Of a stretch of 64,000 nt of DNA, positions 1,039 to 43,440 are shown one piece after another. Position 1 is the first letter of the stretch, and every line of letters starts with the position of its first letter. Position numbers and translations under genes: made by a program. This DNA is from Somniosus microcephalus (lineage: Eukaryota), in assembly GCA_052327205.1 (NCBI GenBank), contig CM126218.1, positions 58,962,001-59,026,000 on the forward strand, in the 5' to 3' direction. Under the pieces are notes generated by a model. The model saw only the letters and a list, made by a program, of their open reading frames with translations. It had not been told where the DNA came from and did no database searches.

Positions 1039-4000
1039 TCACACTGGGCAATGTGCTTACTAACTGAACCATGAGGGAAAACTTTTAAATTAGGACAGTA
1101 TTGATACAAATGCATCAGAATAAGTGAACAATTGTAGTTGATTTAATTGAGCTGCTTGCTCAAGATATGTACAAGTTAAATTTAATTTTACTTTGGAAGT
1201 GAAACCCATCTTTTTTGTATGGGCCCTCTTGGCATCAATTACTGTGCTACTGGCAGTACAGAAACATCTCCAGGTACTCCTTCTGCTCCCACTTGCCAGC
1301 CAAAAAAAAAAATCAAGGGATATGCTAAAATTAACAATCCACTGAAACATTATTTAAAAAATCTCAAACTCCTACAAGAGCGAAATGATGCAACCAAGTT
1401 CCAGGGTTCAGATTCAGGATATAAATGACTGAAGTTTAGCTCCCATGATTTGCCTGGACTTAAACTCTGGGATTGGATCGAACTCCCTCCCCAGGTGCGT
1501 GTTAAAAGTTTTTCATTATTATGAAAGCTTAGGTAAACCAAGAAAGAATATATTTGACAATAATATCTAGTATAGCATGATTATTAAATAAAGGAAGTAA
1601 AATATTTTCAATGCCTTCCCTTGTGCAGAATTTGCTTTACTTTGTTATCCAGATTTTTTTGCCACTTTATATCTAAAGACACTTAGAGCACAAATGCAGT
1701 CCTCCAATTACACCGAATGTTCTTTGCTATAAAAGTAAAATGGAAACTTGAAATAAAGCATTCTTCATTGTGCTGCAGCAACATTTCTGACATTCCTGTA
1801 GGTGTTTTGTCATCAGTTTACAAAAGCCTTGTACTTGAACCACTCCACTCTCCTGGAAGTAGCTTTGCACTTTTCTGACAAACTTACTGGGATTGTCATT
1901 AATGCAAAGGGACAGGAGACTGAATATTTAGGACTCATGAAAAGGGCATCAGTTTGGTTCACAGAGACTTCTGGAGTTTGCATTCAATAAAACAGTAAAG
2001 TGAACTGACGAGCTTTGCAAATTGCTGAAGATGTGAACATTGATTGAGTTGACAGTCGCTGTGCATGTCAGTATTTTAAAATAAGAGAGAGTTAATGCTG
2101 CTCCAGGGTCACCAATCTACTGTTAAGGACTGACTGGAATAATGTAATTGATGCATAACTGGCACCAAAACAAACCACCACCAGATAAGAGGCTGGTGAC
2201 AGTGGGTTGTTAAAAGCAAATTCATGCAGGTACTCCGTTATTTAAAACATATATACAAAATGCAGCAATGTAAAGTTTTTGTTTCAGATTTCCAGTTTTG
2301 TTTTCTTTTTATATTTGTATAGCAATGTAAAGACAAGTTGAAAACAGTCTGTATAAAACAGTGAGTATGAAACTTCTAGTTTTTATTCGTGTGAATGGAA
2401 AAGAGCATAGTACCTTCACTAGCCCCAATCTAACTGAGCTATGATATGTTAACTTTTACAGAGAGGCTGTCGAGAATAATTTTCACTAAAATGAGAACAA
2501 AATTGAGGGGGAGATAAAGAGGTAGAAACCTAAATATGCCTCGGGCTGCAAATAGTTTTGAAGATTTATCTAATTGGACAAGCGGATAGCCTGATGAGCA
2601 ATAAAAAGTATAATTTCAACCTTAGTTGAGGTGCTAAATTTAAAGAGGCATTGTATTCATTAAAAAGGCGCTGAGAAAACTATTTCACATAGGGATGGAG
2701 GGGAGCCAGAACATGAATTTGCAGATTTTCATCATAATATCCTGCATAAGTGATAAGTTTGAAGTGATTGCTTTTCTTTATAAACACAATGAAATGATGT
2801 CAAACGTTTGCTAACACTCTTGCAGAAGCACAGTACTGCTCCTGGAACATAAACAAAGCATGGAAGAAAAAAAAGGTATTTTGGTCCATTACGTTCATTT
2901 CTTCTACAGACCACATACAATTCACTATCATTGACTCCACCCAACCTATCTAATTACCTGAGCAAAGATTCTACAAAGCTTTGCTCTGTCCCTCACAAAA
3001 GGTAAATCCACCAAACTTCCAGAATATTGACATCCTAAGTCCTATCGTTCCAGCAGTTCAGGAATCATTATATTCCACACAACATTCAACCAGTTCTATT
3101 TAGCATCTAAGCTCCAAATATGTTACCTTCCACACCCTTCCTCTTGCTTACATCTTCAATATATCGAAATATGTACTGAATTTCCCTCCAATTTAATTAT
3201 CTGATCTAACATTATTTTAGCCGATCTACCAGGCACAAGTTTTTGATTCTAAATGCATGCTCAATATTCCTTATGACTTTTGTTGTTCTCTAGCTATACA
3301 TTGATACTATAGGCCTCCAAACAGTAGTGGTAATGTAGGGGATGGCATCAAACAGGAAATTAGAGATGCATGTAACAAGAGTACTACAGTAATCATGGGT
3401 GACTTTAATCTACATATAGACTGGCCAAACCAAATTAGCAATAATACTGTGGAGGATAAATTCCTGGAGTGTGTACGAGATGGTTTTTTAGACCAGTACG
3501 TTGCGGAGCCAACTAGAGAATAGGCTATCCTAGATTGGGTATTGTGCAATGAGAAGGGGTTAATTAATAATCTTGTTGTGCGGGGTCCTTTAGGGAAGAG
3601 TGACCATAACATGATAGAATTTTTAATTAAAATGGAAAGTGAAGAAGTCCAATCCGAAACTAGGGTCCTAAATCTAAACAAAGGAAACTACGAAGGTATG
3701 AGGAGTGAGTTGGCTATGATAGATTGGGGAGCTTCATTAAAAGGCATGATGGCGGATAGGCAATGGCTAACATTTAAGGAACGAATGCATGAATTGCAAC
3801 AGTTATACATTCCTTTCTGGCTCAAAAACACAAAAGGAAAAGCAGCCCAACCATGGCTAACAAAAGAAATTAAGGATAGTATTAGATCTAAAGAGGAGTC
3901 ATATAAAGTTGCCAGAAAAGTAGCAAGCCTGAGGATTGGGAGCAGTTGAGAGTTCAGCAAAAAAAGGACCAAGAGATTGATTAAGAGGGGAAAAATAGAG

Positions 4001-4756
4001 TATGAGAGTAAACTTGCAGGGAACATAAAAGCGGATTGTAAAAGCTTCTACAAGTATGTAAAAAGAAAAAGATTAGTGAAGACAAATGTAGATCCCTTAC
4101 AGTCAGAAACGAGAGAATTTATAATGGGGAACAAGGAAATGGCAGAGCAATTAAACAAATACTTTGGTTCTGTCTTCACAGAAGAGGACACAAATAACTT
4201 CCCAGAAATGCTAGGGAACCAAGGGTCTAGTGAGAAGGAGGAATAAAAGGAAATTATTAGTAAAAAAAAGTGCTGGAGAATTTAAATCGGACTGAAAGCT
4301 GATAAATCCCCAGGGCCTGATAATCTGCATCCCAGAGTACTAAAAGAGGTAGCCATGGAAATAGTGGATGCATTGGTTGTCATCTTCCAAAATTCTATAG
4401 GTTATGGAACAGTTTCTGCAGATTGGAGGGTGGCAAATGTAACCCCACTATTTAAAAAAGGAGGGAGAGAAAACAGAGAACTACAGACCGGTTAGCCTAA
4501 CATCAGTAGTAGGGAAAATGCTAGAGTCTATTATGTATAAAGGATGTGATAACAAGACACTTAGAAAATATCAACAGGATTAGAGAAAGTCAACATGGAT
4601 TTATGAAAGGGAAATCGTGTTTGACAAACCTACTGGAGTTTTTTGAGGATGTAACTGGTAGAATAGATAAGGGAAACCAGTGGATGTGGTGTATTTGGAT
4701 TTTCAGAAGGCCTTTGATAAAGTCCCACATAAGAGGTTAGTGTGCAAAATTAAGTC

Positions 4757-5704
4757 ATGGCAGTAGAGCTCGGACCTGTGTCATGCTCCTCCTGTAACAT
4801 GTGGGAAATCAGGGACGCTTCCTGTGTCCCTGACGACTATGTGTGCGGGAAGTGTGTCCAGCTGCAGCTCATGTGGGACCGCATGACGGCCCTTGAGCTG
4901 CAGATGGACTCACTTTGGAGCATCCACGATTCTGAGAGGGGTGTGGATAGCACATTTAGTGAGTTGGTCACACCGCAGGTTAAGGCCAGCGTAGACAGTA
5001 CATGGGTGACCAAAAGGCAGAGCAAGGGCAGGAAGGTAGTGCAGAAATCCCCTGGGGTTGTCTCCCTTAGCAACAGGTTCACCGTCTTAGGTACTGTTGT
5101 CGGGGGGGGTGACGCATCGGGGGAAGGCACCAGCAGCCAGGCTCATGGCACCATGACTGGCTCTGTTGCAAAGAAGGGAGGGAAAAAGAGTGGCAGGGCT
5201 ATAGTAATAGGGGATTCGATTGTAAGGGGAATAGATAGGGGTTTCTGTGGTCGCGACCGAGACTCCAGGATGGTATGTTGCCTCCCTGGTGCAAGGGTCA
5301 AGGATGTCTCGGCGCGGGTGCAGAACATTCTGGAGGGGGAGGGGGAACAGCCAGTTGTCGTGATACATGTTGGTACCAACGACGTAGCTAAAAAAAGGGA
5401 AGAGGTCCTACAAGTAGAATTTAGGGAGTTAGGAGCCAAGCTAAAAAGTAGGACCTCGAAGGTAGTAATCTCTGGATTACTACCAGTGCCACGTGCTAGT
5501 AAGAGTACAGAGAACAGGATAGTTAGGCTAAATACGTGGCTTGAGCAGTGGTGTAAGAGGGAGGGTTTTAAATTTTTGAGGCATTGGAACCAGTTTTGTG
5601 GTAGGTGTGACCTATACAAAAGGGACGGTCTACACCTGTGCAGAGATGGAACTGATGTTCTCGGGGTAATTTTTGATAAAGCAGTTCGGGAGCATTTAAA
5701 CTAG
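4757..5704 (+). CDS. CR1 ORF1p: CxxC..CxxC zinc finger, coiled coil and SGNH/GDSL esterase domain
   Basis: 315 aa; CSSC and CGKC motifs, VIGDS, HVGTND, DGLH. Confidence 0.92.
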   Translation: MAVELGPVSCSSCNMWEIRDASCVPDDYVCGKCVQLQLMWDRMTALELQMDSLWSIHDSERGVDSTFSELVTPQVKASVDSTWVTKRQSKGRKVVQKSPGVVSLSNRFTVLGTVVGGGDASGEGTSSQAHGTMTGSVAKKGGKKSGRAIVIGDSIVRGIDRGFCGRDRDSRMVCCLPGARVKDVSARVQNILEGEGEQPVVVIHVGTNDVAKKREEVLQVEFRELGAKLKSRTSKVVISGLLPVPRASKSTENRIVRLNTWLEQWCKREGFKFLRHWNQFCGRCDLYKRDGLHLCRDGTDVLGVIFDKAVREHLN

Positions 5705-8646
5705 TATGGCAGGGGGCTAGAAACCTATGTAGTGAAATAGAGGAAAGTGAAAGGCAGACAGAAATAAATGGTAAAAGGGTGAGGAACAAAAAACAAAGGG
5801 CCAAACTAATTCATAAAAAATGTGAGCATAAAAAAAGCCTGAGGGTTTTATACCTTAATGCGAGAAGCATCAGGAACAAGGTAGATGAATTAGCTGTGGA
5901 AATAGAGGTTAATAATTATGATCTAATTGGGATTACGGAAACATGGTTGCAGGGTGAGCAGGGCTGGGAGCTTAACATACAGGGGTATTCAGTATTTAGG
6001 AAGGATCGACAAAAAAGAAAGGGAGGAGGGGTAGCATTGCTAGTAAAAGAGGGGATAAATGCAATTGAAAGGAAGGATATTAACTCAGTTAATACAGAAT
6101 CTATATGGGTGGAGCTAAGAAATAGCGAGGGGCGAAAAACATTAATAGGAGTGGTATATAGGCCTCCAAATAGTAAAATAGAGGTTAGGGAGGGCATCAC
6201 GAGGGAAATTAGAGAAGCGTGCAATAAGAGCACAGCTGTCATCATAGGTGACTTTAACTTACATATAGATTGGACTAGCCTAATCAGTAAAAATAATGAG
6301 GAGGAGGAATTCCTTGAGTGTTTAAGGGATGGTTATCTGGATCAATATGTCGAGGAACCAACTCGGGAACAGGCTATATTGGACTGGGTACTGTGCAATG
6401 AGAAGGGACTAATCAGTAATCTTGTTGTACGGGGACCCTTGGGTCAGAGCGATCATAACATGATCGATTTCTCACTCGAAATGGAGAGCGAAGAAATTGA
6501 CTCAGAGACTAAGGTCCTGAATTTAAACAAGGGGAATTATGATGCCATGAGACGGGAACTGAGTAGGTCTGATTGGACAACGTTCCTGAGAGGACTGGAG
6601 GTAGATAAACAATGGCAAACATTTAAAGATAGAATGACAAAATTGCAAAAATTGTTTATACCAATCTGGCATAAAAGGAAATCTAAAAAGGTGACTCAAC
6701 CGTGGATAACAGGGGAAATTAGAGACAGCATAAAATCCAAAGATAGGGCGTATAAAATAGCCAAAAAAAGCGCCAGAGCGGAAGATTGGGAACAGTTTAA
6801 GATAGAGCAAAGGAGGGCAAAGGGCATGATCAAGAGGGGCAAAATAGCTTACGAAAACAAGCTGGCGGAAAATATAAAAACTAACTCCAAAAGCTTTTAT
6901 AAATATATCAAAAGGAAAAGACAGGTGAAAACCAAAGTTGGTCCATTGCAGTCAGATACGGGGGAATATATAATGGGAAATAAGGAAATGGCAGATCAAC
7001 TAAATGCATACTTTGGGTCAGTCTTTACGAAGGAAGACACAAAAAACCTCCCTGGGATATCGGGAAAAATAGGGACATTGGCAAAGGAGGAACTGACGCA
7101 AATCAATATCTCTAAGGATATGGTGTTAAGGAAGCTAAAGGGATTGAAGGTGGACAAATCCCCAGGGCCTGATAACATGCATCCTAGGGTACTGAAGGAG
7201 GTGGCCCTAGAGATAGCGGATGCACTAAGGATGATTTTTCAGAATTCATTAGACTCGGGAACAGTGCCGATGGATTGGAGGGTAGCTAACGTTACCCCAC
7301 TATTCAAAAAGGGGGGTAGGGAAAAAGCAGGTAATTACAGACCTGTAAGCCTTACATCAGTTGTGGGCAAAATGCTGGAGTCCATCATTAAGGATGAAAT
7401 AGCGGAGCACTTAGCAAATGGGGACAGGATAGGACAGAGTCAACATGGATTTACAAAGGGTAAATCGTGCTTGACTAATCTATTGGAATTTTTTGAGGGA
7501 GTAACTGGTAGAATAGATGGGGGAGAGCCAGTAGATGTGGTGTACCTGGACTTCCAAAAGGCCTTCGATAAGGTCCCACATAAAAGATTAGCATGGAAAA
7601 TTGAGGCTCATGGGATAAAGGGGAAAGTTTTGGCGTGGATAGGGAACTGGCTGTCAGATAGAAAACAGAGAGTTGGAATAAACGGCTCATTTTCTGAATG
7701 GCAGGCAGTAACAAGTGGGGTACCACAGGGATCTGTCCTGGGCCCCCAGCTGTTCACAATTTACATTAATGACCTGGATCAGGGAGTCGGATGCAGCATT
7801 TCCAAATTTGCAGACGACACTAAACTAGGAGGTGGGGTGGGCTCAGAGGAAGAGACCAGGAAGCTCCAGAGCGATTTGGACAGACTGGGCGATTGGGCGG
7901 ATAAATGGCAGATGCACTATAATGTGGACAAGTGCGAAGTTATCCACCTTGGGTGCAGGAACGGGAGGGCAAATTATTATTTAAATGGCAATAGATTGGG
8001 AGAGGGGGAAGTACAGAGAGACCTGGGTGTTCTTGTACACCAGTCACTGAAGGCGAGCATGCAGGTGCAACAGGCGGTCAAGAAGGCAAACGGTATGCTG
8101 GCCTTCATAGCAAAAGGGTTAGAATACAGGAACAGGGATACCTTGCTGCAGCTGTACAGGGCACTGGTGAGACCACACCTCGAGTACTGTGTACAGTTTT
8201 GGTCGCCTCATCTGAGGAAGGATGTTCTTGCCATGGAGGGGGTGCAGCGGCGATTCACCAGGCTGATACCAGGAATGGCGGGAATGACCTATGAGGAGAG
8301 ACTATGTAGTTTAGGGATGTACACACTGGAGTTTAGAAGATTGAGAGGGGACCTCATAGAAGTGTATAAAATTCTGACAGGTCTAGACAGACTGGATGCA
8401 GAAGGAATGTTTCCCTTGGCGGGTGAAAACAGAACTAGAGGACATAATTTAAGGATAAGGGCTAAACCATTTAGGACAGAGATGAGGGGGAATTTCTTCA
8501 CTCAGAGAGTGGTGAACCTGTGGAACTCATTGCCACAGAGGGCAGTGTACGCCAGCTCATTAAATATATTTAAGAGGGAATTAGATATATTTCTACGGGC
8601 AAAAGGGGTTAAGGGTTACGGAGAGAAGGCGGGGACGGGATACTGA
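5680..8646 (+). CDS. CR1 ORF2p: AP endonuclease plus reverse transcriptase (frame open from 5680; true start unclear)
   Basis: Uninterrupted frame with YLNARS, ITETWL, YRPP, GDFN, SDH, PGPD, YRPVSL, GVPQGSVLGP and FADD. Confidence 0.95.
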   Translation, partial: SSSGAFKLVWQGARNLCSEIEESERQTEINGKRVRNKKQRAKLIHKKCEHKKSLRVLYLNARSIRNKVDELAVEIEVNNYDLIGITETWLQGEQGWELNIQGYSVFRKDRQKRKGGGVALLVKEGINAIERKDINSVNTESIWVELRNSEGRKTLIGVVYRPPNSKIEVREGITREIREACNKSTAVIIGDFNLHIDWTSLISKNNEEEEFLECLRDGYLDQYVEEPTREQAILDWVLCNEKGLISNLVVRGPLGQSDHNMIDFSLEMESEEIDSETKVLNLNKGNYDAMRRELSRSDWTTFLRGLEVDKQWQTFKDRMTKLQKLFIPIWHKRKSKKVTQPWITGEIRDSIKSKDRAYKIAKKSARAEDWEQFKIEQRRAKGMIKRGKIAYENKLAENIKTNSKSFYKYIKRKRQVKTKVGPLQSDTGEYIMGNKEMADQLNAYFGSVFTKEDTKNLPGISGKIGTLAKEELTQINISKDMVLRKLKGLKVDKSPGPDNMHPRVLKEVALEIADALRMIFQNSLDSGTVPMDWRVANVTPLFKKGGREKAGNYRPVSLTSVVGKMLESIIKDEIAEHLANGDRIGQSQHGFTKGKSCLTNLLEFFEGVTGRIDGGEPVDVVYLDFQKAFDKVPHKRLAWKIEAHGIKGKVLAWIGNWLSDRKQRVGINGSFSEWQAVTSGVPQGSVLGPQLFTIYINDLDQGVGCSISKFADDTKLGGGVGSEEETRKLQSDLDRLGDWADKWQMHYNVDKCEVIHLGCRNGRANYYLNGNRLGEGEVQRDLGVLVHQSLKASMQVQQAVKKANGMLAFIAKGLEYRNRDTLLQLYRALVRPHLEYCVQFWSPHLRKDVLAMEGVQRRFTRLIPGMAGMTYEERLCSLGMYTLEFRRLRGDLIEVYKILTGLDRLDAEGMFPLAGENRTRGHNLRIRAKPFRTEMRGNFFTQRVVNLWNSLPQRAVYASSLNIFKRELDIFLRAKGVKGYGEKAGTGY

Positions 8647-8679
8647 ATTAAAGGATCAGCCATGATCTCATTAAATGGC

Positions 8680-8743
8680 GGAGCAGGCACGAAGGGCCGA
8701 ATGGCCTACTCCTGCTCCTATCTTCTATGTATCTATGTATCTA
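8680..8743 (+). other. CR1 3'UTR stem-loop and octamer tail
   Basis: GGAGCAGG (8680-8687) pairs with CCTGCTCC (8711-8718); inner GGCC-GAAT-GGCC; ATCTATGT repeats follow. Confidence 0.85.
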
Positions 8744-8904
8744 TAAAGCACATGGGATTGGGGGTAATATACTGGCATGGATTGAAAATTGGTTAAAACA
8801 GACAGGAAACAGAGAGTAGGAATAAATGGGTCTTTTTCGGGGTGGCAGGCGTGACTAGTGGGGTACCGCAGGGATCAGTGCTTGGGCCCCAGCTATTCAC
8901 AATA

Positions 8905-9444
8905 CAGGAAACTAGTTTAAACGGCACCTAAATATCCGGAATTCTCTATTAACCGGCAAAATTCTCACTCCGAAAACAACACCTCAATAACCGGCAATGT
9001 TGCCGAGTCCAAGTCCCCCGCGGTGGCCGAGTTAGTCAGTGGGGGTAGTTCTCCAAACTGCCACTACTCGGCTTTTTGGCGCTGTCGGAAGTCGGAACAC
9101 CTCAATACCCCTGTAACAGGAGTGTGACTCTCCCGCGCTGCCGGTAGTCTCTTCTGATCCGCCATTTTACAGGGGTACTGTGTGTCTCCCACGCTGCTGG
9201 TAGTCATTGCATTGCATTACCCTCAACTGGCAGTACTGTACTTAATCAAGCATCTTCCACCATCCATTTAACACAACATTCTGTAGGTGAGTACCCAATT
9301 ACTGTATACTGCATATTTATTGATTTTTTAAAATTTTTCTTTGTTAAAAATAGCCTCGGTAGATAACTCTCTCCGTCATCTGGAATTTTTAATCAACCGG
9401 CAACACGGCGGTCCCGTCTGTGCCGGATACCAAAGAGTTTTCTG
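8905..9444. mobile_element. pogo/Tigger-like (Tc1/mariner superfamily) MITE, 540 bp
   Basis: TA TSD and imperfect CAGGAAACT.../...AGTTTTCTG TIRs. Removal restores host codons F-T-I-Y-I-N-D. Confidence 0.82.
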
Positions 9445-11063
9445 TATATATCAATGATTTGGATGAGGGAACCAAATGTAATATTTCCAAGTTTGCCGAC
9501 AACACGAAACTAGGTGGGATTGTGGGTTGTGAGGAGGATGCAAAGAGGCTTCAAGGCGATTTAGACAAGTTGAGTGAGTGGGCAAATACATGGCAGATGC
9601 AGTACAACGTGAATAAATGTGAAGTTATCCACTTCGGTAGTAAAAACAGAAAGGTAGAGTATTATTTAAATGGTGCTAGATTGGGAAATGCTGATGTACA
9701 AAAGGGACCTGGGTGTCCTTGTACACCAGTCACTGAAAGCAAACATGCAGGTGCAGCAAGCAGTTAGGAAGGCAAATGGTATGTTGGCCTTCATTGCAAG
9801 AGGATTTGAGTACAGGAGCAAGGATGTCTTACTACAGTTGTACAGGGCCTTGGTGAGACCACACCTGGAGTACTGTGTGCAGTTTTGGTCTCCTTACCTA
9901 AGGATATACTTGCCATAGAGTGAGTGCAGTGAAGGTTCACCAGACTGATTCCTGGGATGGCAGGACCATCGTATGAGGAGAGATTGGGTTGACTAGGCCT
10001 GTATTCACTAGAGTTTAGAAGAATGAGAGGGGATCTCATTGAAACGTATAAAATTCTGACAGGGCTAGACAGACTGGATGCAGGGAGGATGTTTCCCATG
10101 GCTGGGGGGTCTAGAATGAGGGGTCACAGTCTCAGGATACGGGGTAGGACATTTAGGACTGAGATGAGGAGAAATTTCTTCACTCAGAGGGTGGTGAACC
10201 TGTGGAATTCTCTACCACAGAAGGCTGTGGATGCAAAGTCACTGAATATATTTAAGGAGATAGATAGATTTCTAGACACAAAAGGCATCAAGGGGTATGG
10301 GGAGAGAGCGGGAATATGGTATTGAGATAAAGGATCAGCCATGATCATATTGAATGGCGGAGCAGGCTCGAAGGGCTGAATGGCCTACTCCTGCTCCTAT
10401 TTTTCTATATTTCTGTTTCTATCCCTAAAATTGCTCTGAATTGATGGACTGAAATTTTGCTGCAATCTGCCTATCTATTTCTCTCTTGACTTTTCTAATA
10501 TTCATTTGTTACCCCCAACTGAATTTTGTTTAATTCCCATTCTCAAAGTCCTTTTTTCTTTGTATATTTTTTAAATGGGCATCGTTACTTTTGACGTCCT
10601 CATTCAGCTATATTTGAGGTCATTGAAATTTCTCACATAAATGCCTATAGTTCTATGCAAACCTTATAATCATATGAATGCATTAAAATCTGAAGCTCTG
10701 ATTAAAAAAAATTAAAAGTCTTGTGCTCGACCTGAGAAGCACATCGGCTCATAAAGGGTGCAATGCCGTCAGTATCATAAGGGTCTTATCTCATTAACTC
10801 ACATTATTAAAATGTCATGTCTGGAATACTGTATGTCTAATGTAATACTGATAGACCAACCTACAACATTACTTGCTCAATGATAACCATATGACACCAC
10901 AGAACAATCAGATCCCTAGAAGAACACTTTATTTTCCACTTTCTATTTTTTAATTATTTCTAACTTTCTTCCTTTGTATTCTTTTCCCCCTACACGGTTC
11001 CCAGCCTCTCTGCTCTTCCCCAACCCTACCTCACCTCCCAACCAAACACAGCTGCATGCTACA

Positions 11064-41864: not shown

Positions 41865-43440
41865 ATGATTAGAGATGTGGTGTAGGAGGGAAGGGTTCAG
41901 ATTCCTGAAGTATTGGGATCAGTTCTGGGGTAGAAATAGGCTGTACCAATAGGATGGTGTACAATTAAACAGAGCTGGATCAATATTCTTGCAGGAGAGG
42001 TTAACAGGAGTTATCGGGGAGAGTTGTTTTAAAAAAAAAACTAATAGGGTAGGGGAACGGGAGAGGTAGAGTAGGGTACACACTTTTGAAGTAAAGCTTT
42101 AGGTGTATAGGGAATAAGAAGGTAGAAAGATTGAAAAAGGTGAAGCAAGACAAGATAGTAAAAATAAATCAGCACGGAGATGCAAAGAAGGAAGAAATTG
42201 TCAAACTAAGGGATTTGAGCAGATGAACAATAAGGGATCAGCTTTATTACTGGGAGTATATTATAGACTGCCAAATATTAGAAATTAAATGGAGGATGAA
42301 AGTTATAGACAAATTAGAGAGGCATGTATTAACAGTTATAATTGTAGGAGATTTTAATTATACAAACATATACTGGGATAGGGAAAATAATTGTGGTAAA
42401 AAGGAGGGGGTATTTTTGCAGTCTGTTCAGGACTGTTTTCTCAATCAATCACCATTCCAGCAAGGAAAGAAGCACTACTTGACCTGGTTCTGGGTAATGA
42501 AGCAGATCAAGCAGTGAACATAAAAGTAGGGGAATATTTGCAAAACTGTGATAAGATAATTAAGTTCAGTGCAAGACTAGAAAAAGAAAGGATGCTTGGC
42601 ATGAAAAAAAAATAAATAGCACGATAAAATGGGGGCTTACCCAGATTAAATGCAAGGAAACAAATGGCAAATAGAACTAAAGCTCAGTAATGGTAAATAG
42701 TTAACCAAGTGATGGAAAAGGTTTAAACATAGATGATTCTAGCAAGAACAAAAGGGCACGTATCGAAGAAACCAAATTAGAACATAAAAAAAATATTCTT
42801 ACAGGGCAGATAATGAAAATGAAAGGTCAGGAAAAATATAAAGGCAATAGAAAAGCTACAAAAATAGAAATTTTAAGAGGGAGAATGAGACAAAATAAGG
42901 AAAAACATTATCAGCAATAAAGAGAGCTTCTATTGGCATGCACTGCAGCAACTTGCCACGGCTTCTTCGGCAGCACCTCCCAAAGCTGCGCCCTCCACTA
43001 CCTTGAAGGGCAAGGGCAGCAGATGCATAGAAAAACCATCACCTCCAAGTTCCCCTCCAAGTCACACACCATCTTGACTTGGACAATATCCCCTTTCTGT
43101 CATTGTCGCTGGGTCAAAATCCTGGAACTCTCTGCCTAACAGCATTTGGGGGGGGCACCTTCACCACACAGACTGCAGCTGTTCAAGAGGAAGACACCCC
43201 ACCACATTCTCAGGGCAACTAGGGTTGGGCAATAAATTCTGGCCTTGCCAGCAAAACCCACATCCTGCCTATGAATAAAATAAATTAATAGGAAGAGGAG
43301 AGTCAAGGTAGGGGTAAGGCCACAAAGAGATAAATGAGACACGCTTGCAGTGGAATGTGATGAAATGGCAGAGATACTGAATAAGTATTTTGCTTCAGTT
43401 TTCAAAGAGAAGGTGGATATTGAGATTGTAGAACCACCTT
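41865..43440 (+). mobile_element. Very degenerate CR1 (ORF1 end to mid ORF2), interrupted at about 42932-43285 by a YKAQVRS-family LINE end
   Basis: WCRREGFRFLKYWDQFWG (ORF1 C-terminus), IVGDFNY and EMAEILNKYFASVF motifs. Confidence 0.75.

Follow-up and report, generated by a model that had tools for sequence, protein, structure and literature searches.

A young copy of a CR1 retrotransposon, a long interspersed nuclear element (LINE) with two open reading frames (ORFs), lies within the stretch of DNA analysed here, 64,000 nucleotides of Somniosus microcephalus (GenBank assembly GCA_052327205.1, contig CM126218.1, positions 58,962,001 to 59,026,000 of the forward strand; hereafter the window, numbered from its first letter), and the question addressed is how its second ORF might be expressed (Table 1). 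The genome has a size of 6.4 Gb, and passages of PMC13343379 describe CR1-group elements as the dominant retrotransposon in most vertebrate species and give the canonical vertebrate CR1 the same layout as the element in the window, i.e. an esterase ORF1 followed by an ORF2 with APE endonuclease and reverse transcriptase (RT). The assignment is borne out by the SGNH esterase of ORF1 (PF13472 scores above cut-off), which has homologues in sharks, rays, frogs, reptiles and birds, by an ORF2 in which the endonuclease precedes the RT, and by a 3' microsatellite that replaces poly-A together with 5' truncation at about 4754. The nearest named ORF1 homologues in the protein search come from sharks and rays, and in a tree of ORF1 esterases the close homologues group with amniote ORF1s, apart from a teleost-type esterase clade without the Leu-Asn end discussed below. 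Since the copy is truncated at its 5' side (at ~4750-4754), is devoid of the family's 5' untranslated region (in other family copies the shared sequence runs on in the 5' direction for several hundred bases or more) and is nested in an older CR1, the question of mechanism concerns the active masters of the family and not the window copy itself.

Table 1. Features of the young CR1 copy and of its ORF1/ORF2 junction, in window positions
Feature	Position	Strand	Evidence or remark
Young CR1 LINE copy, both ORFs intact, nested in older CR1	4754..8743	+	99.9% identity to family copies
ORF1, 315 aa, ATG 4757 to TAG 5704; N-terminal CxxC..CxxC motif, C-terminal SGNH/GDSL esterase, Leu-Asn-stop end	4757..5704	+	PF13472, E 5e-11
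ORF2 frame (-1), APE endonuclease and RT, first ATG 6460	5680..8646	+	PF03372, PF14529, PF00078
Slippery heptamer T_TTA_AAC, X_XXY_YYZ phase in zero frame	5695..5701	+	Invariant in 12/12 lineages
ORF1 stop TAG abutting the heptamer	5702..5704	+	TAA or TAG in 12/12 lineages, TGA in none
54-codon -1-frame linker from heptamer to endonuclease motif I, open, no Met	5695..5856	+	No stop in -1; frame 0 has 6 and +1 has 11
G-rich motif GGCAGGGGG, candidate unstructured stimulator, 7-15 nt past the heptamer	5708..5716	+	Kept at fixed distance
3' end, short TATCTATG-type repeats, without poly-A	8721..8743	+	Direct sequence reading

ORF1 finishes with the codons caT TTA AAC TAG. A preliminary description of this DNA had claimed that TTTAAAC stands there in X_XXY_YYZ phase directly before the stop, that the -1 frame of ORF2 is already open at 5680 and hence overlaps the heptamer, that the first in-frame AUG comes only after the SDH motif, the start listed at 5779 being a mere GTG, and that a fusion of about 1296 residues would result; each of these readings is reproduced here. 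The endonuclease motifs begin at 5857 (NARS), 5935 (TETW), 6247 (GDFN) and 6448 (SDH), all of them upstream of the earliest in-frame ATG, and the predicted -1 fusion adds up, by ORF lengths, to 315+981 residues with EHLN-LVWQGAR at the junction. The -1 frame closes 5 codons upstream of the heptamer, and this short stretch contains no ATG. TTTAAAC occurs 15 times on the plus strand of the window, so that a single heptamer is not rare; what goes beyond chance is that it keeps the same position and phase from one lineage to the next.

The heptamer and the -1 frame across CR1 lineages

ORF1 ends were gathered by protein searches with four homologues, by two degenerate patterns placed upstream of the junction and from 60 random 10-kb stretches. 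The window-type junction was present in all of the first 30 copies, which, having been chosen for 100% identity in the ORF1 protein, are uninformative on conservation. A hidden Markov model that stops 13 residues short of the ORF1 end returned 204 matches, 183 with enough coverage and 145 of them distinct (24 clusters); exact TTTAAAC followed by TAA or TAG was found in 125 of the 145. Where the ORF ends in frame with Leu-Asn-stop (n=120), the codons are T_TTA_AAC in 115 copies and T_TTA_AAT in 3, with another first base in the remaining 2. Twelve lineages were then compared through single real copies, 11 of them from one genome and with L264 left out; their RT is 65-86% identical to that of the window element, where a long unbroken match existed. 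All 12 end in T_TTA_AAC_TAR, the nine bases TTTAAACTA being invariant, and this among last 30 codons that are only 50-94% identical.

Is this more than the constraint of two amino acids? Codon -3, which holds the X base of the heptamer, encodes Ala, Asp, Gly or His in the 12 lineages, and the X base is invariant nonetheless. The last 75 codons hold 68 further free third bases, just 6 of which (9%) are invariant (11 lineages, L160 left out), so that joint invariance of the three such positions within the heptamer would have a probability of ~7e-4 if they were independent, a figure to be taken as a guide only. Both Leu residues of DGLHL vary in codon use (5 and 4 different codons, the top codon reaching 4/12 for each). 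By this comparison the heptamer is kept in phase beyond what Leu-Asn demands, the point that the preliminary description had proposed to check, and the free synonymous codon use that had been named as evidence to the contrary did not appear among the 12 lineages. The base 10 nt upstream of the ORF1 stop (window 5692, in codon -4) is likewise G in 12/12 lineages across Glu, Gly, Lys and Arg codons, and the signal may extend upstream to include it.

The register of ORF2 was counted from the ORF1 stop, not from the heptamer, with the sole requirement that the endonuclease frame be open from there; so counted, ORF2 lies at -1 in 53 of 54 intact copies, the exception being a copy with a short deletion. 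Linkers between the heptamer and endonuclease motif I were tabulated for 11 lineages (L138+ left out; most representatives had been chosen as open) and measure 35, 47, 52, 54, 57, 60, 62, 68, 69 or 71 codons, in -1 phase in 11 of 11, with no stop in that phase, compared with 1-12 in either of the remaining frames. In 9/11 lineages a stop closes the -1 frame 4-5 codons ahead of the heptamer, so that no upstream sequence can feed it.

The -1 frame could nevertheless be entered at an AUG within the linker, by leaky scanning, reinitiation or an internal promoter, in which case the heptamer would be a relic or serve another role. An in-frame Met is indeed found in 7/11 linkers (at codons 16, 18, 20, 23, 43, 44, 57 and others) and could start a complete ORF2, but these positions are not conserved, a Met would presumably arise by chance in many 60-codon stretches, and the frame is open all the way from the heptamer even where the Met stands 43-44 codons downstream. 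The other four linkers, that of the window's very young family among them and two in all from very young families, have none, their next Met lying 8, 12, 131 or 201 residues beyond the Asn of motif I, and in the window's family a start at the first AUG would remove the entire endonuclease. A start of this kind is thus very improbable. A family AUG ahead of the endonuclease had been singled out as a sign against frameshifting; that expectation of absence holds for the window's own family and fails for the seven lineages with a linker Met.

We therefore favour, at a probability of roughly 0.8, the reading that CR1 ORF2 is made by -1 programmed ribosomal frameshifting (PRF) at U_UUA_AAC, which would yield a 1296-residue ORF1-ORF2 fusion. 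Most ribosomes would terminate at the UAG or UAA and release the 315-residue ORF1 protein; a minority would slip, tRNA-Leu exchanging its UUA for UUU and tRNA-Asn its AAC for AAA, and would then decode CUA as Leu in place of the stop. The product would join the zinc-binding motif and esterase of ORF1 to the endonuclease and RT, and the slip would fix a ratio like that of gag to gag-pol, tying the ORF2 protein to the ORF1 protein of the same RNA. Three features of a -1 PRF site, a heptamer in the zero frame, a -1 ORF open from the heptamer and conservation beyond the amino acids, are present, and judged on them the junction is a real, strongly conserved recoding-type signal.

Might the frame be corrected in the RNA instead, by splicing or by polymerase slippage at TTTAAA? 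Run lengths beside the site do change in genomic copies, one extra G in the G-run giving fused ORFs of 1286 residues. Two raw RNA sequencing runs (24% and 31% read) cover the junction continuously, at mean depths of ~80 and ~100, and neither an indel nor a splice joint is listed for it at a 2% setting; sensitivity is limited, since the reads stem from many copies and both strands and events under ~3 reads would be missed. Correction in the RNA appears the least probable of the routes considered, slightly below even a linker AUG. Nor is there a pile-up of RNA starts at the junction among the entries listed for these runs, another point against an AUG in the linker. In a second read comparison the contigs of one other organism differ at many nearby sites and at none within 5695-5703 among the entries listed; the remaining three runs barely cover the stretch.

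The extra G is found in another young CR1 family of the window genome (L299-L307 and L316, e.g. C17:87064000-87068800), where it precedes the heptamer, and at least five copies carry a single 1286-residue ORF1-ORF2 frame. A permanently fused sub-lineage was considered and rejected, fused copies requiring 8 changes on a tree and forming a single group in 0% of bootstrap trees; the tree had 12 rows with hand-picked fused copies, one row (L113) being mislabelled as fused and one having a very long branch. The fused copies look like recurrent slips of the G-run or assembly errors, and nothing points to a master that is permanently fused.

What might stimulate the proposed shift

The stem-loop or pseudoknot that is usual, not universal, 5-9 nt downstream of a -1 PRF site was not found. 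No fold exceeded shuffled sequences over +4..+70 or +4..+150 in the 12 lineages (mean z 0.2 to 0.5), the alifold consensus downstream of the heptamer was empty, and no first stem of a pseudoknot appeared downstream in ViennaRNA, which does not model pseudoknots; the earlier impression that no convincing pseudoknot follows the site is thereby upheld. A local downstream hairpin was accordingly discarded, as were an upstream hairpin that reaches z -3.3 in the window's family only and is not conserved (mean -0.67 across lineages), and a long-range partner for the G-rich motif (at ~7740, -19.8 kcal/mol), the position of which differs between families. The motif itself has invariant G residues at +7, +11, +13 and +14 after the heptamer in 12/12 lineages, with +4..+6 varying; in the -1 frame +11 and +14 fall on third codon positions, at which the background of G is 76/264. 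From these sequences we infer that the abutting stop and the G-rich motif would together drive the shift. The more specific model, a pause from slow termination at the adjacent stop combined with a single-stranded G-rich motif at +7..+15 instead of a pseudoknot, we hold at even odds.

Precedents for the individual parts are given in passages of PMC5009743, where U_UUA_AAC is counted among the heptamers on which mammalian ribosomes shift most readily. Coronavirus ORF1a/1b (IBV) uses the same heptamer in the same phase, and both it and retroviral gag-pol resemble CR1 in having an upstream structural ORF and a downstream polymerase; in CR1, by contrast, no pseudoknot or stem-loop was found, the stop follows the heptamer directly and the host is a LINE. 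An unstructured 3' stimulator, acting without pairing within the mRNA as the candidate CR1 motif might, is known from the 6K/TF site of Semliki Forest virus, and the shift of pea enation mosaic virus needs a nearby stop codon, such as CR1 also has, although the heptamers of these two viruses differ from that of CR1; synthetic G-quadruplexes, too, stimulate shifting (PMC5009743).

The main rival is termination-reinitiation as in L1 and SART1, in which ribosomes would restart near the ORF1 stop, at a -1-frame codon other than AUG, and make a free ORF2 protein. Reviews give reinitiation for both elements (passages in PMC2881922, PMC3708506 and PMC5009743), which are, like CR1, bicistronic LINEs with low ORF2 output; it would likewise keep the linker open and in phase, and near-cognate codons are available (ATA at 5737 and 5764, GTG at 5779). 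It would, however, leave the invariant X_XXY_YYZ heptamer upstream of the stop unexplained. L1 has a short spacer between its ORFs and SART1 an overlapping UAAUG, whereas in CR1 the frames overlap, the register is fixed at -1 and no AUG is conserved; there is no UAAUG-type stop-start overlap in the ORF2 frame, the ATG at 5706 belongs to the +1 frame, opens 4 codons only and is missing in most lineages, and the fold tests on the 12 lineages revealed no downstream structure like that of SART1. Reinitiation is unlikely on this evidence, yet it stands ahead of the linker AUG and of RNA correction.

ORF1 protein ends in other genomes

Does the signal reach beyond the genome of the window? A metagenome locus (L031, non-shark, 44% ORF1 identity), whose ORF1 end matches a sturgeon-named protein at 85/89 residues, has T_TTA_AAC_TAG, the G-rich motif and a 35-codon -1 linker without Met. 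Among the ends of 228 homologous proteins, 92 are Leu-Asn, 8 Gly-Asn, 7 another residue followed by Asn, 39 otherwise and 9 a long tail, with 73 having no anchoring motif; within the vertebrate CR1 ORF1 clade the Leu-Asn end is found in 70/76. Proteins that end in Leu-Asn-stop span sharks, rays, bony fish, frogs, turtles, squamates and birds, named sources including a sawshark, rays, a chimaera, an eel, an elephantfish, frogs, lizards, a snake, turtles, a swallow and a turaco. Leu-Asn is still terminal where the tail after DxxH has 26, 32 or 39 residues, which would link it to the stop rather than to the fold. In three copies the frame is broken (stingray P0037, painted turtle P0121 and the unnamed P0075), and these read Phe-Lys-Leu at this place, which is the -1 reading of TTTAAACT.

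Several distant esterase ORF1s (P0132, P0141, P0143, P0144, P0145, P0150, P0212 and P0227, as well as P0154) end in Gln/Ser/Ala-Gly-Asn-stop and one in Lys-Asn-stop, and these proteins sit mixed with a Leu-Asn one in a single clade. Such protein ends would be compatible with G_GGA_AAC and A_AAA_AAC heptamers. The viral contigs searched yielded no loci for the Gly-Asn-stop proteins, all 35 loci from the search of genome contigs were bacterial SGNH hydrolases and were set aside, a search for longer proteins gave 2 uninformative matches, and queries with the distant ORF1s P0062 and P0085 led only to families already in the set. CR1 ORF1 sequence was also met under a Pseudomonas assembly or within shark and ray gene models (RPS24, TMEM204, ABHD14A-like) as P0008, P0028, P0071/P0072, P0082 and P0089; the Pseudomonas case is likely contamination.

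It is conceivable that all members of the vertebrate CR1 clade, those of sharks and birds included, make their endonuclease and RT only within a gag-pol-like fusion. The -1 frameshift behind it would be ancient and would depend on the abutting stop and on a G-rich motif in single-stranded form, not on RNA structure, while the distant esterase LINEs with Gly-Asn-stop and Lys-Asn-stop ends would use G_GGA_AAC and A_AAA_AAC; for this wider proposal the balance could tip either way.

Counter-evidence, precedents and consequences

Several considerations weigh against frameshifting. The scattered linker Mets described above are the main one as far as a single mechanism is concerned. The 12 lineages share ancestry (11 come from one genome), which makes the probabilities optimistic, their representatives were mostly chosen for an open frame, and other invariant third bases exist at codons -4, -21, -27 and -29. 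With no stimulatory structure, the canonical second element of a -1 PRF site is missing, and the evidence from tetrapods is at the protein level only. Passages of PMC5009743 report that L1 ORF2 initiation is thought not to need its AUG, and AUG-independent initiation of that kind could also explain CR1 ORF2s devoid of an AUG; a passage in PMC3708506 argues that ORF1 functions must be separate from the ORF2 protein.

Translation of LINE ORF2 is described as reinitiation or as unclear in passages of PMC5009743, PMC3708506 and PMC2881922, among others. The preliminary description had regarded -1 frameshifting as a trait of elements with long terminal repeats, which has to be corrected: a passage in the review PMC5911963 states that a -1 frameshift is required for ORF2 of the Dictyostelium LINEs TRE5-A and TRE3-A, and, given this statement, frameshifting in a LINE is not categorically new. 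These APE-type non-LTR elements resemble CR1 in having two ORFs, with APE and RT in ORF2, and differ from it in belonging to another clade and in their unrelated ORF1; the CR1 site, for its part, is a canonical heptamer directly before the stop, kept from one vertebrate lineage to another, the comparison resting on the review's statement for the TRE side. As to CR1 itself, the words 'frameshift', 'slippery' and 'overlap' do not occur in the main text of PMC13343379 as far as it was available, nor do 'frameshift' and 'overlap' in the available text of PMC4316615; 'CR1' is absent from the first 300,000 characters of PMC5009743, and in the same span of PMC11835228 the passages on frameshifting concern ALV-E. 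No frameshifting proposal for CR1 was found in the literature, of which few subscription papers were covered, and an earlier remark in the original CR1 papers is possible.

If the frameshift is real, the actual CR1 enzyme would carry the ORF1 protein at its N-terminus, CR1 ORF2s annotated from their first AUG would be mis-annotated (with loss of the entire endonuclease in the present case), counts of 'intact' CR1s would need redoing and functional CR1 constructs would have to retain the junction. The junction also offers a short, natural and structure-free candidate for a frameshift cassette.

The surroundings of the young copy deserve a brief description. It is hosted by an older, decayed CR1 that occupies ~3300-4753 and 8744-10420 of the window, the host sequence resuming at ~8744, and its insertion joints show TTAA microhomology on the 5' side and a repeated TAA on the 3' side. 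The old CR1 in turn contains an insert of ~540 bp at 8902-9447 with short inverted ends (12 nt, 92%) and TA flanks, which we take to resemble a miniature inverted-repeat transposable element of the Tc1/mariner type. Elsewhere in the window (~41990-42050, plus strand) lies the ORF1 end of an old CR1 in which the A-run of the heptamer has expanded and a G-rich stretch follows.

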